Positions 15,728-26,024 are shown, counted from the stretch's first letter. The stretch: 35,354 nucleotides of DNA from Pyrinomonadaceae bacterium (GCA_041493085.1 JBGPYG010000001.1:1-35354); one strand, 5' to 3'. Translations and numbers: made by a program. Notes: a model not told the origin generated them from the letters alone.

Positions 15728-16153
15728 TCACACCTTGGCATAGGGTCGCAACGCATCCTGTAGTGACTTGGGAACCGGCACAGCGTGAAGCTGATCACCG
15801 ACCCGCTGCATGCAGGCCACTTGCTGCTCGCCGCGCGCCACTAGGTCTTCCTTTCCCGCGTTGAGTAGCCAATATTCGAAGAGCATAGTGATTCGATTCT
15901 GTTTGAGCGTTCGCAAACGCATACGGATGATAATCTCGTCAAAGGCTGACAGTTCCGCGAGGTACTCGCATGAGACGTAGGTGGTCGCCAGAGCAAACCC
16001 TTCGGCGAGCGCACGCAAAATCTCCGGTGCGTGTTCGCGGAGGAACATCTCGCGACAGCGTCCCTGCCAGCGCACGTGGTTTGTGTAGTAAACGTTCCCG
16101 ACGAGGTTCGTCTCTTCAAATCCCACGACGTGGCGGAACTCATAAGCTCGCAT
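15728..16153 (-). CDS. tebC: Hot-dog fold thioesterase of the enediyne TEBC type (SgcE10/CalE7-like)
   Basis: The sequence YEFRHVVGFEETNLVGNVYYTNHVRWQGRCREMFL matches my recollection of the 4HBT-like enediyne TE family. The gene sits 43 nt downstream of the PKSE stop. The ATG at 16153 has GGAGAG 6 nt upstream, so it is preferred over 16180. Confidence 0.8.
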   Translation of the reverse strand: MRAYEFRHVVGFEETNLVGNVYYTNHVRWQGRCREMFLREHAPEILRALAEGFALATTYVSCEYLAELSAFDEIIIRMRLRTLKQNRITMLFEYWLLNAGKEDLVARGEQQVACMQRVGDQLHAVPVPKSLQDALRPYAKV

Positions 16154-16196
16154 GCTTAGCTCTCCTATCACCCTGGTCATCTATCGCGAAAGATAT

Positions 16197-22966: not shown

Positions 22967-24924
22967 TGGGTCGCACCCCCTTTCGATCGCCAGCCGAGCA
23001 CGACTGTATGCCAGCCCGGAGGGAGCGACAGATCTTCACAATTGATCTGTCCATCAGGATCACGCCAGTAGAGTCTGATCCGAATTGGATTGTTAGTCGC
23101 AGCGCCACCCAACCCAAAATGTAATTCGGGACTGCGCTTTCCTGAGTGGCCGTTGCCGCCGTCAACCTGGGACACGAGCAGTCTACCAGCCGCGAGATAG
23201 ACGGTAGCGGTGGCGCCGATGGCCGCGCGGCCTGGCGTGTCCGCTCCCGGATGTCCACCGCGCGTCCAGGTCTTGGCGAAGGTGTCGCGGCGAAGCGGCA
23301 ACAACAGATGAAGTCCCAGAAAAGCTCCGCGAGCGGGACTCTCGTTGTGATAGAAATATGATGGCTGCCACTGATTAGCGAGAACGAAGTCAAGCGCACC
23401 ATCCCCATCTACGTCAGCAACTGCAATACCTCGGCTGACTTGGGGCTCAGCGAGGTCGAGCTCCGTAGCGAGGTCGTAATATCGCCCATCCTTAGCACGA
23501 ACGAAGAACGGGTTGTGCTGGCGGCCACTAAGATCATCTCCCGGTTGAAATCGCGGCCAACTCCGCGGATGATGCAAAAGACGGTCGTTGCCCATTGCCA
23601 ACTCTTGTAGTTCTGGCCAGCGGTTGGTTTGACCATTTAGGAACCCCACGGCCTGCATTGCCTCCATCACGCCATCGTTGTCGAAGTCAGCCAGCTTCGC
23701 ATCCCAAGCCCACCCGCTGCGAGATAGACCAAGTTGTTCGCTGCGATTGACGTAGGGCGCCACACCCCTCTGCATTTCGTCGAGTCTTCCCGTACTCATA
23801 AAAAGGAGGTTGCTTTCCAGCAGTCCGTACTCGGTAGTGATGTTGCTAACGTAGATGTCCGGCAATCCATCTCCGTTTAGGTCCGCAAAGTCCACGCCCA
23901 TTCCTTTGAACGAATCACGACCAAGCGCACTGGAATGTGGCGTCGTGAGTGTCTCCGCCCCTTTTAAGAGATCAAAGTGAAGTTGTCCCGGCGTGGAATG
24001 GTTGTGCAGCAGACGGTCCGGTCCAAAGTCATTAGCAAAGTACAATTCGGGAAGCAGGTCTCGATCCATATCAACTGCTCCGACGGCGAGCGTCCATCCA
24101 TGATTCACGTCGTCAGCCAGAACATTTTCGGCTTCTTTGAACCGCACTGTCGGTTCAGCCCCGCCCGTTGATCCAGCCCATAAGAGCAGATGCTTGCGGC
24201 CGCCATTCAGCGCCCTTGACATCGACTCCTGCATCCCTTCGTCGTCGGTCGAATTCACATCGAGTATTCTCGACCCGTCCGGAAAATAGTTTGCGATCAC
24301 CAAGTCGACGTGACCATCGCCATCCAGGTCGGCGAGTGTGGCGCCATTGGTGTACCAGCGCTCACCGCCGGGAAGAATTTCACGAGGCACGTAGTGATCG
24401 TCCTGGTGGAGAAAGGCAATCGGCGTTCGTCCCCAGTAGTAAACCAGCATGTCGAGCCGGCCATCCTCGTTCAGATCGCCGAGCAAGCAACCCATAGGGG
24501 CCATGATTGTGGAGTCGTAAGGCAGCGGCGCCGGGTCCAACTGGAAAGGTTTGTAGCGCGCACCTGTTCCCGGCACAGGCGTGACGGCCACCATGTCAGT
24601 ACGTGTATCGACATAGCAGACGTCGTCGGCCAGACCGTTTCCATCAAGGTCGCCAAGCGCCGCGGCGGCGCCAACGGAAGAGATCCAACTCGCTATTCGA
24701 TCAAGACTTGGATGGACCTTTCTTATTTGGTGCGGCGCATGTCCCGGCCATTTCGGCGGCAATTCTGGCAGCGGTTGGCGGGAGAAGTGGAAGCGCACGG
24801 CAAGCGCCGCTCGCTCAGCATTAGACAAAACGGGCTGACGGGCTAAACCATACGCAATGCCCAGGAGTGTGATTGCCAGTACGCGCGCTACGTGACGGCG
24901 AAGAAAACTGGACCGCATAGTCAT
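22963..24924 (-). CDS. unbV: FG-GAP/VCBS-repeat protein with C-terminal ASPIC/UnbV domain (enediyne E4 / CRTAC1-like)
   Basis: FG-GAP/VCBS repeats include LGDLNEDGRLDMLVY, ADLDGDGHVDLVIANY, ADLNGDGLPDIYVSN, ADFDNDGVMEA and VADVDGDGALDFVLAN. The C-terminal UnbV_ASPIC-like segment reads GGNGHSGKRSPELHFGLGGA...IRIRLYWRDPDG. An N-terminal signal-anchor is present. I prefer the ATG at 24924 because it forms an ATGA overlap with the upstream stop at 24921. Confidence 0.85.
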   Translation of the reverse strand: MTMRSSFLRRHVARVLAITLLGIAYGLARQPVLSNAERAALAVRFHFSRQPLPELPPKWPGHAPHQIRKVHPSLDRIASWISSVGAAAALGDLDGNGLADDVCYVDTRTDMVAVTPVPGTGARYKPFQLDPAPLPYDSTIMAPMGCLLGDLNEDGRLDMLVYYWGRTPIAFLHQDDHYVPREILPGGERWYTNGATLADLDGDGHVDLVIANYFPDGSRILDVNSTDDEGMQESMSRALNGGRKHLLLWAGSTGGAEPTVRFKEAENVLADDVNHGWTLAVGAVDMDRDLLPELYFANDFGPDRLLHNHSTPGQLHFDLLKGAETLTTPHSSALGRDSFKGMGVDFADLNGDGLPDIYVSNITTEYGLLESNLLFMSTGRLDEMQRGVAPYVNRSEQLGLSRSGWAWDAKLADFDNDGVMEAMQAVGFLNGQTNRWPELQELAMGNDRLLHHPRSWPRFQPGDDLSGRQHNPFFVRAKDGRYYDLATELDLAEPQVSRGIAVADVDGDGALDFVLANQWQPSYFYHNESPARGAFLGLHLLLPLRRDTFAKTWTRGGHPGADTPGRAAIGATATVYLAAGRLLVSQVDGGNGHSGKRSPELHFGLGGAATNNPIRIRLYWRDPDGQINCEDLSLPPGWHTVVLGWRSKGGATQ

Positions 24925-26024
24925 ACCAAATTCTCCGTGGCAAATCTTGTTTGGATCCTCTTCTGCCAAGTCTCGTACCCCGGCTCGTCCCCATTGGTCG
25001 AAAGGTTTTCGAGAGCTTCATCAGTGATACTCGCGGCTGCATCCGCAGAGAGGCCACAGAGAATCCGGCAGGCTGCCTCCGTGTGTTCTGCTCCGTTGCC
25101 GGCCCGCCGACGCGCCTTTGCCGCGAACGCCGCGCCCTGGGCCATCTGAGGCCGGTAAGGTCCCGCAGCTTGCTGCAAAACTTCAATCGCGGTGCAATTC
25201 ACTCCACCCGCATAAGCGCAAGCAAGGCCAACTCCGCTCCACAAGTCCGCGTGACGAGATGAATCGAACTTCGCAATCGTGACCGGTATGCGACCCGCAT
25301 CGGCGCCATCTACAAACCATAGGCTGCGACCCAGGCCTTGGTCGAAGACCCGGCAACCGTAAGCGGAAAGCCGTTCAGGGATCTTTTGTTCGACAACGTA
25401 ATGCGGCCAGTGAAAGTAGCCCTCGTGAAAACCGTATCCGTCTAACGCCAACCAGCACAGCAATGGATTCAATTGCTTCAAATAATCCTTTAGGTGTCGG
25501 CGAAGCCACGGAAGCCTTCCTATCACCCACCCGATCCCTACGTGGACCATGTATATGTGGTCGGTTCCTGGACCAGCTACGAAATACCGCAGCCGCCGCC
25601 GGTTCCAAGGAGTGAGATGGTCGAGCAAAGCCAGCCCCATCGCCGCGCCTTCAAACGCAAACCCGCGCAGCTCCCGATCAATCAAGTTCAGTCGCTGCGC
25701 TAACGCTGACGGATCAGTCTCTTCTAGTGCAGTGTGATAACCCAGCAGGAAGGTGGCACCAATCTGCTCCAGTCGCTGACGTGCCTGATTATCCGTGCCC
25801 CGAAAGCCACGGCGAGCAAAAGTTGTTTCTTCAATTGGGAGGTGGAACAGTTGCCGGCGCAAGTGTCTAAAGGAGAAGAATCTTGCTGGACTAGTTTCTC
25901 GCTGCAGCATCTCACTCACTCTTGAGGGGAGTCGAATTAAAAGAAATCTAAAGAATCCGCGAGCGAACCAAGCAAGACGCGGTTTGGCGTGGACCATATT
26001 TGGTTGGAAACGGCTTAAACCCAA
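24921..26024 (-). CDS. unbL: DUF1702-family protein, UnbL (enediyne E3)-like
   Basis: This soluble protein is about 330-367 aa, with FARRGF...LEQIGATFLLGYHTAL...GFAFEGAAMGLALLD...LDGYGFHEGYF...GLGRSLWF. It is the first gene of the coupled array. The start is ambiguous: TTG at 26024 with GGAAGG upstream, or ATG at 25910, which gives a typical 329 aa. The family call is from memory plus synteny. Confidence 0.72.
   Translation of the reverse strand: MGLSRFQPNMVHAKPRLAWFARGFFRFLLIRLPSRVSEMLQRETSPARFFSFRHLRRQLFHLPIEETTFARRGFRGTDNQARQRLEQIGATFLLGYHTALEETDPSALAQRLNLIDRELRGFAFEGAAMGLALLDHLTPWNRRRLRYFVAGPGTDHIYMVHVGIGWVIGRLPWLRRHLKDYLKQLNPLLCWLALDGYGFHEGYFHWPHYVVEQKIPERLSAYGCRVFDQGLGRSLWFVDGADAGRIPVTIAKFDSSRHADLWSGVGLACAYAGGVNCTAIEVLQQAAGPYRPQMAQGAAFAAKARRRAGNGAEHTEAACRILCGLSADAAASITDEALENLSTNGDEPGYETWQKRIQTRFATENLV

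Follow-up and report, generated by a model that had tools for sequence, protein, structure and literature searches.

An intact minimal enediyne-type polyketide synthase cassette on a contig assigned to the acidobacterial family Pyrinomonadaceae

Introduction

In actinomycetes, the minimal cassette of enediyne core biosynthesis consists of an enediyne polyketide synthase (PKSE, or E), a hot-dog thioesterase (E10, also called TEBC) and the three proteins E3 (UnbL), E4 (UnbV) and E5 (UnbU), and the heptaene made by PKSE and thioesterase is an on-pathway intermediate (PMC9992847). PKSE, the thioesterase and E3 to E5 together give rise to the enediyne core (PMC10760148), and one report indicates that enediyne clusters, once activated, can also give polyenes that are not enediynes (PMC9682884). 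Among bacteria, only actinomycetes are characterised as enediyne producers, the only other source being marine ascidian extracts (PMC10308959). Ketosynthase (KS) sequences of the enediyne type occur outside the Actinobacteria in Cyanobacteria, Proteobacteria, Firmicutes, Bacteroidetes, Chloroflexi as well as Spirochaetes; these lineages hold PKSE-type synthases with no known product, and the list of phyla given for such KS sequences does not include Acidobacteria (PMC10308959). Here we describe a five-gene cassette of this kind in a stretch of 35,354 nucleotides (nt) assigned to a Pyrinomonadaceae bacterium (GCA_041493085.1, JBGPYG010000001.1:1-35354), which was analysed as a whole and is referred to as the window throughout.

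We consider it highly probable that this locus is a genuine and intact minimal PKSE cassette in an acidobacterium of the Pyrinomonadaceae, with a chemistry that can be proposed from its homologues and a product that is likelier a new polyene or polyyne than an enediyne of the chromoprotein type. An earlier reading of the DNA, made from the sequence alone (the original prediction), had proposed that the locus makes an enediyne-core-derived or related polyene-derived metabolite. This proposal is supported by the homology to the C-1027 cluster, by a tree of the synthase and by the predicted fold of its C-terminal domain. The working of the conserved E3, E4 and E5 proteins is still poorly understood. 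We found no literature that ties enediyne-type cassettes to Blastocatellia or Pyrinomonadaceae, while automated annotation already labels them as such; the window is one of many uncharacterised copies of the cassette in soil metagenomes and would not surprise a specialist.

Results and Discussion

Cassette genes and their junctions

The five cassette genes lie co-directionally on the minus strand between positions 15728 and 25910, in the order E3-E4-E5-E-E10. Lengths are given in amino acids (aa).

24921-25910, minus strand: E3/UnbL homologue, DUF1702 protein of 329 aa (Pfam PF08012, E 2e-121; 39% identical to SgcE3)
22963-24924, minus strand: E4/UnbV homologue, 653 aa, FG-GAP propeller (Pfam FG-GAP_3, PF13517) with a C-terminal UnbV_ASPIC domain (PF07593; 46% identical to SgcE4)
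22040-22966, minus strand: E5/UnbU homologue, polytopic membrane protein of 308 aa (50% identical to SgcE5; weak Pfam match to NQR2_RnfD_RnfE, 2e-8)
16197-22043, minus strand: PKSE, iterative type I polyketide synthase of 1948 aa (48% identical to SgcE; Pfam domains and KS-acyltransferase tree)
15728-16153, minus strand: E10/TEBC hot-dog thioesterase, 141 aa (enediyne thioesterases in a PDB phmmer search; Pfam 4HBT_2)

The reference proteins are those of the C-1027 cluster, which Streptomyces globisporus C-1027 carries on plasmid SGLP1. Hereof, SgcE aligns with the window's synthase in a single collinear alignment of 1940 columns, and SgcE4 with the propeller protein over 671 columns, at the identities listed above. 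The DUF1702 protein is closer to SgcE3 than to the paralogue SgcE2 (35%), and the thioesterase is 53% identical to SgcE10. The three open reading frames (ORFs) upstream of the synthase thus belong to the UnbL, UnbV and UnbU families to which they had been assigned, being 39-50% identical to their C-1027 counterparts in alignments that span almost the whole proteins, as do those of synthase and thioesterase; in the FG-GAP protein, the terminal ASPIC/UnbV-like domain is recognised by Pfam. Homologues of E5 on Streptomyces plasmids are annotated as 'enediyne biosynthesis protein UnbU'. The small hot-dog protein behind the synthase, likewise foreseen, falls into the subfamily of the enediyne thioesterases: phmmer against PDB returns SgcE10 (4i4j, 3e-43), CalE7 (9e-43) and DynE7 (4e-39), with generic YbgC-type proteins at about 1e-7. 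With bit scores of 151, 149 and 137 for SgcE10, CalE7 and DynE7, respectively, it is about equally near to the references from 9- and 10-membered systems.

The genes are tightly packed. Read on the coding strand, the stop codon of UnbL overlaps the start of UnbV in ATGA (24921-24924), that of UnbV the start of UnbU in GTGA (22963-22966) and that of UnbU the start of PKSE in ATGA (22040-22043), each overlap comprising 4 nt exactly as had been claimed. The UnbV gene accordingly starts at ATG 24924 and encodes 653 aa. For the DUF1702 gene the family assignment held, while the extent proposed for it, up to a TTG at 26024, did not: since the first 51 residues of the long ORF lie outside the SgcE3 alignment, which opens at residue 52, and a near-identical contig carries a call of 329 aa, ATG 25910 is most likely the start. 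The longest ORF of the thioesterase begins at 16180 (150 aa), and its most likely start is ATG 16153, which is preceded by AGGAG; with this start the predicted spacer of 43 nt between synthase and thioesterase is correct. A scan for promoters and terminators gave site numbers no higher than chance.

The E5 homologue contains at least five hydrophobic segments, and the profile of its family matches 8ahx_D, the RnfD subunit of the Rnf complex from Azotobacter (E 1.2e-5), over residues of about 164-247, a segment that holds the invariant motif D-P-x-T-x-P. The protein is thus a distant relative of RnfD/NqrB. One may speculate that this distant kinship to RnfD, a flavin-carrying membrane subunit, fits a membrane-bound redox role of the E3/E4/E5 trio. 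A profile of DUF1702 proteins found no solved structural relative, and a single-sequence structure model of UnbL was unusable, with a mean predicted local distance difference test score (pLDDT) of 37.7. Clustered at 50% identity, the entire DUF1702 family falls into about 1500 groups.

Domain organisation of the synthase

Pfam places KS, acyltransferase (AT), phosphopantetheine-binding (PP-binding), ketoreductase (KR) and a two-part polyketide synthase dehydratase (DH) domain in the synthase, in this order, as the original prediction had it. The PP-binding region represents the acyl carrier protein (ACP), and the C-terminus is assigned to a phosphopantetheinyl transferase (PPTase).

20805-22034, minus strand: KS domain, aa 4-413, with Cys212, His345 and His385 (Pfam ketoacyl-synt N and C)
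19509-20306, minus strand: AT domain, aa 580-845, Ser655 (Pfam Acyl_transf_1; NCBIfam fabD-like, 580-845; DynE8 AT structure 4amn, E 3e-53)
19053-19208, minus strand: ACP domain, aa 946-997, single copy, Ser976 (Pfam PP-binding, E 7.6e-6 when scanned alone)
17880-18419, minus strand: KR domain, aa 1209-1388 (Pfam KR, E 1e-31; TGGGKGIT at 1212, Tyr1356)
16848-17642, minus strand: DH domain, aa 1468-1732, His1486 (Pfam PKS_DH_N and PS-DH)
16260-16832, minus strand: predicted Sfp-type PPTase domain, about aa 1738-1928 (AlphaFold2 with Foldseek; conserved motifs)

Every catalytic residue and motif named in the original prediction stands at its predicted position. Cys212 lies in DGACASS, Ser655 in GHSLGE, Ser976 in DLHLNSIT and His1486 in HVFQGDRLLP, and the PPTase motifs RRPDGKP, GCDLE and WATSECLKK are at residues 1792, 1825 and 1870, respectively.

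The C-terminal 207 aa gave no match in Pfam or in a sequence search of PDB, so that the PPTase call needed a structure model. The three PPTase motifs are kept across 23 homologues, and an AlphaFold2 model calculated from the alignment of these homologues reached a mean pLDDT of 85.5. In a Foldseek search of PDB with this model, the top 32 matches are all Sfp-type PPTases (E 8e-8 to 2e-5; next match 6e-3), among them PptT, PptAb, PcpS, human AASDHPPT and Sfp itself. Along with the homology to SgcE, the model thus predicts that the C-terminal domain folds as an Sfp-type phosphopantetheinyl transferase, which bears out the earlier call.

Phylogenetic position of the synthase

One alternative reading is that the synthase is a polyunsaturated fatty acid (PUFA), heterocyst-glycolipid or other iterative polyene synthase that is functionally unrelated to enediyne synthases. 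Such a reading draws on the domain order KS-AT...KR-DH, which is common to PUFA synthases, and on the NCBIfam search, in which PfaA is among the best named models (E 4e-157), although its score for TIGR02813 (525) remains far under the cut-off of 1010. We regard it as extremely improbable. The synthase has one ACP instead of a tandem array, its KS-AT region is 54% identical to SgcE and only 25% to Shewanella PfaA over the same region, an enediyne-type thioesterase and E3 to E5 are adjacent, and PfaB, PfaC and PfaD are missing from the window.

The same result emerges from a neighbour-joining tree of 25 taxa (883 KS-AT columns, 100 bootstraps). Here, the window's synthase falls into an acidobacterial clade (bootstrap 74) with the synthase of a metagenome contig (L009) as sister (99). 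This clade joins a second one with a cyanobacterial, a Gemmataceae and other sequences, and both together are sister to the actinomycete PKSE including SgcE, with a bootstrap of 93 for the union. Shewanella PfaA lies outside (bootstrap 85-93), as do split PKSE-like synthases of Gloeothece and Sinorhizobium plasmids, one Desulfobacteraceae synthase and an archaeal one. The synthase therefore groups with PKSE and not with PUFA synthases, as the original prediction demanded. The plasmid-borne proteins just mentioned are PKSE-like in KS-AT (about 42%) and come from Gloeothece verrucosa (L095) and from pSymA of Sinorhizobium meliloti (L096); in Gloeothece the synthase is split over two genes, which are followed by two tryptophan-halogenase genes.

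Conservation of the cassette among related loci

The cassette belongs to a large family. More than 100 clusters of full-length synthases are 58-75% identical to that of the window, many of them named 'enediyne polyketide synthase' by the JGI pipeline; a metagenome scan with the thioesterase alignment yielded at least 430 relatives, the best 80 of which share 63-74% identity, and a scan of genome contigs found only two true PKSE loci. Gene neighbourhoods were counted in the loci of the thioesterase scan, in other relatives and in the window, wherever the flanking sequence sufficed. Upstream of the thioesterase, PKSE is present in 25/25 loci, E5 in 19/20, E4 in 19/20 and E3 in 18/19. Directly downstream, 31 of 50 related loci carry an AraC-family regulator. 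What is conserved across the acidobacterial clade, as judged by these neighbourhoods, is only the five cassette genes, often together with the AraC regulator.

The remaining gene content varies. In 13 of 38 loci (L041, L049, L051-L053, L059, L065, L066, L068, L069, L081, L089 and L093) a transporter of the MMPL/RND type with about 800 aa lies just past AraC, in 12 cases on the opposite strand, and is likely to export a lipophilic product; this transporter is not found in the window. The nearest relatives, L009 and L011, carry a cytochrome P450 and conserved hypothetical proteins beside the cassette. Between synthase and thioesterase they hold an extra gene of 280-283 aa without a Pfam match (L009, 15876-16727; L011, 15887-16729), where the window has just the 43-nt spacer. 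In one acidobacterial subclade with L001, L010 and L014, a sigma-54-dependent activator is located just upstream of E3, about 11.6 kb upstream of the thioesterase.

Regulator and downstream block

Downstream of the thioesterase the window contains an AraC-family regulator and, from 2160 to 14423, a candidate tailoring block that is co-directional with the cassette (Pfam, NCBIfam and PDB assignments).

14670-15524 (longest ORF to 15605), minus strand: AraC-family regulator (Pfam HTH_18; 38% identical to the AraC protein of C-1027)
14094-14423, minus strand: small cupin
13006-14046 and 11849-13033, minus strand: two O-methyltransferases (PF00891)
10747-11811, minus strand: dihaem-type cytochrome c
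9748-10635, minus strand: FAD subunit of a molybdenum (Mo) enzyme of the xanthine dehydrogenase family
6927-9755, minus strand: iron-sulfur (FeS) and Mo subunit of the same enzyme
5016-6533, minus strand: propeller of the ScyD/ScyE family (NCBIfam ScyE cut-off passed, 146 bits vs 80)
2893-4752, minus strand: multicopper oxidase, nearest to the aminophenol oxidase PhsA
2160-2816, minus strand: SCO1

Among the related loci, this combination of cupin, O-methyltransferases, Mo enzyme and multicopper oxidase is restricted to the window, L071 and L039. In L071 the order is kept beside thioesterase and AraC from the cupin through the multicopper oxidase, and in L039 from the cupin through the FAD subunit, where the contig ends, with about 46-80% amino acid identity in both cases. 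Because the same order recurs beside thioesterase and AraC in these two contigs, the block may be the tailoring set of the cluster, an assignment to which we give roughly even chances. The ScyE-like propeller and the PhsA-like oxidase suggest extracytoplasmic oxidative coupling or pigment-type chemistry. A mosaic origin, with cassette and downstream block stemming from different lineages, was also considered, given that the similarities to the relatives switch between thioesterase and AraC, but no clear signal emerged from the variable PPTase region and a mosaic is not claimed.

Upstream region, assembly and host

Two gene fragments lie upstream of the cassette.

26638-27009: integrase-core (rve) fragment, just upstream of the cassette
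29973-30524: amino-acid permease, C-terminal half only (88% identity with the permease of L009, residues 226-409)

Near the truncated permease, within 29675-30603, an ORF of 94 aa is 89% identical to an ORF of a relative. In L009 and L011, AraC is followed by genes for a 262-aa protein, a P450 and a 398-aa protein, and the permease and the 94-aa ORF come behind these, downstream of the cluster. Since the integrase fragment and half a permease are located upstream here, while the permease of the nearest relative lies downstream of the cluster, the gene order indicates that the region has been rearranged.

This finding raises the possibility that the cassette is a decaying relic, unexpressed or non-productive after a rearrangement mediated by insertion sequences stripped it of partner genes. 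The integrase fragment and the permease cut to its C-terminal half speak for such a history, and so does the nearest relative, whose permease lies downstream of the cluster behind a P450 and two uncharacterised genes, all three of which the window lacks. Against this, no interruption is found in the five core ORFs (11.3 kb together), their catalytic motifs are intact and the 4-nt couplings are all kept; the same arrangement is present in a second assembly, and the replacement block downstream is itself conserved beside the thioesterase in two other contigs. Decay of the locus is thus very unlikely.

The second assembly, GCA_041485945.1 (L007), matches positions 6196-30264 of the window with 99.92% identity (19 mismatches, 1 gap), so that the arrangement of the cassette was assembled twice. 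L007 stops within the truncated permease, at position 30264 of the window, and it is therefore the window's own assembly alone that supports the join to the side of the ABC1 kinase (see below).

No genes for ribosomal proteins, ribosomal RNA or transfer RNA were found within the window, and its taxonomy is for this reason based on the named relatives of three proteins. The named near relatives of the synthase (63-69%) are metagenome-assembled genomes (MAGs) of Blastocatellia or Pyrinomonadaceae, and the same groups provide those of the ABC1 kinase (80%) and of a Vgb-like propeller (57-62%). From these similarities, the host can be placed, with fair though not full confidence, in the Pyrinomonadaceae (Acidobacteriota), which agrees with the expectation that it is not an actinomycete. 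That it is an unusual host holds only relative to the characterised producers; the statement loses weight in that enediyne-type KS outside the Actinobacteria are known (PMC10308959) and JGI annotation already labels acidobacterial ones.

In place of the sigma-54-dependent activator of L001, L010 and L014, this side of the cassette has a short zf-HC2 anti-sigma-like ORF (26207-26398) and a sigma-70 region 4 protein (27589-28569). A kinase of the ABC1/UbiB type is encoded at 31540-32826. Homologues of the kinase with 76-80% identity share contigs with PKSE homologues; in L013 and L014 one follows directly after the AraC gene of the cassette, with a PP2C phosphatase next to it in L014. The next named relatives of the kinase are cyanobacterial (Microcystis, 60%). 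The idea that the kinase travels with PKSE cassettes across phyla was rejected, the Microcystis homologue having no cassette within 10 kb; its neighbours are P450, SnoaL, AHSA1 and DUF6073 genes.

Proposed chemistry and product

Gene identities and domain order are observed directly, and the chemistry can be proposed by analogy with the characterised actinomycete homologues. The C-terminal Sfp-type domain of the synthase would attach the phosphopantetheine arm to the enzyme's own Ser976. The synthase would then iteratively condense malonyl units with full ketoreduction and dehydration to yield an ACP-bound conjugated polyene, which the hot-dog thioesterase would release as 1,3,5,7,9,11,13-pentadecaheptaene. 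The membrane-associated E3/E4/E5 trio is expected to oxidise the heptaene to polyyne-type intermediates, and the adjacent block may further oxidise and O-methylate the product. Gui et al. (Nat Chem Biol 2024) reportedly obtained an iodoheptaene, a diiodotetrayne and pentaynes from the cassette alone, and the cassette product is said in the same work to be the common precursor of all known enediynes.

Several observations weigh against a full enediyne pathway at this locus or limit the comparison on which our reading is based. In a tblastn search of the whole window with the SGLP1 proteins, only E3, E4, E5, E, E10 and AraC match: SgcE6, SgcE7, SgcE8, SgcE9 and SgcE11 find nothing, and SgcE2 hits only the E3-like gene, so a separate E2 is absent. 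The ORF assignments of the window contain no recognisable exporter or self-resistance gene, CalC-like ones included, and the P450 of L009 and L011 is missing along with its partner proteins. To this come the rearrangement described above and two properties of the tree, which was calculated with a distance method and has SgcE, from a 9-membered system, as its sole characterised reference, full-length CalE8 and DynE8 not being among the taxa. Candidates for an apoprotein (CagA-like) or for peripheral-moiety pathways are likewise not evident in the Pfam assignments of the window, for which no search with reference sequences was made. The cassette is complete, as originally described, in the sense of the minimal set, whereas no other core gene of the C-1027 type accompanies it, and an actual enediyne product is not implied.

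A true cyclic enediyne of the 9- or 10-membered type with a DNA-cleaving warhead would need cyclisation and tailoring by enzymes that are unrelated to the actinomycete ones or whose genes lie in another part of the genome. Such a product is compatible with the five intact and conserved cassette proteins, with the oxidative enzymes next to them and with the reported role of the cassette product as common precursor of the known enediynes. It is nevertheless rather unlikely in view of the missing E2, E6-E9 and E11 homologues and the lack of an apoprotein, CalC-like or other recognisable resistance gene among the window's assignments. Moreover, close relatives carry widely differing accessory genes, an argument against an elaborate core pathway common to them, and no enediyne has been reported from Acidobacteriota in the literature searched. 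We thus prefer a polyene or polyyne over a canonical enediyne because the other genes of a 9-membered core are absent and only the five genes and AraC are conserved in the clade.

A more far-reaching version of this preference is that the five-gene cassette plus AraC is the whole conserved unit in Pyrinomonadaceae, a sister lineage to the actinomycete cassettes whose end products are linear polyenes or polyynes with swappable tailoring and not cyclic enediynes. We put this forward tentatively, as a possibility that falls clearly short of an even chance. If it were true, the cassette would originally have served to make polyynes, with cyclisation to enediynes as an elaboration by actinomycetes. 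The variant in the window would then lead to a PKSE-derived compound that is oxidised and O-methylated and represents a new structural class, from a soil phylum that is abundant but little cultured.

With nothing but the five genes retained and all others exchanged, the acidobacterial clade offers a stripped-down natural system for learning what the cassette by itself produces. The clade also points to an untapped source of compounds derived from polyynes or enediynes in a phylum that is dominant in soil; the value of the window itself is more modest, as a single well-preserved case that stands out by its candidate tailoring block.

Comparison with known systems

With the PUFA synthase PfaA, which makes polyunsaturated chains, the window's synthase shares the iterative type I architecture with KS, AT, KR and DH domains. 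PfaA differs in its tandem ACPs, its partner subunits, the lack of a fused PPTase and of E3-E5 and E10 partners, and an identity of 25%.

The C-1027 cluster is far closer. Both loci have the five protein families in common (39-53% identity), the order E3-E4-E5-E, a synthase of the type KS-AT-ACP-KR-DH-PPTase, the thioesterase subfamily and an AraC regulator (38% identity); equivalents of the cassette also occur in the calicheamicin, dynemicin and tiancimycin clusters. Unlike the C-1027 cluster, the window comes from Acidobacteriota instead of Actinomycetota, its synthase belongs to a sister clade of the actinomycete one, and it is without E2, E6-E9 and E11, with no apoprotein or peripheral-moiety pathway evident among its Pfam assignments. 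In C-1027 the thioesterase is encoded 6.5 kb from the synthase, whereas in the window it follows immediately downstream, as is the case on several Streptomyces plasmids.

The gene order of the window recurs in a cassette from a cyanobacterium (L002, 53% identity). The closest likeness is to the uncharacterised cassettes of Pyrinomonadaceae and Blastocatellia MAGs and soil contigs (among them L009, L011, L013, L010 and L001), with synthases of 58-75% identity and identical order and couplings, and it is these soil cassettes that are the true family of the window.

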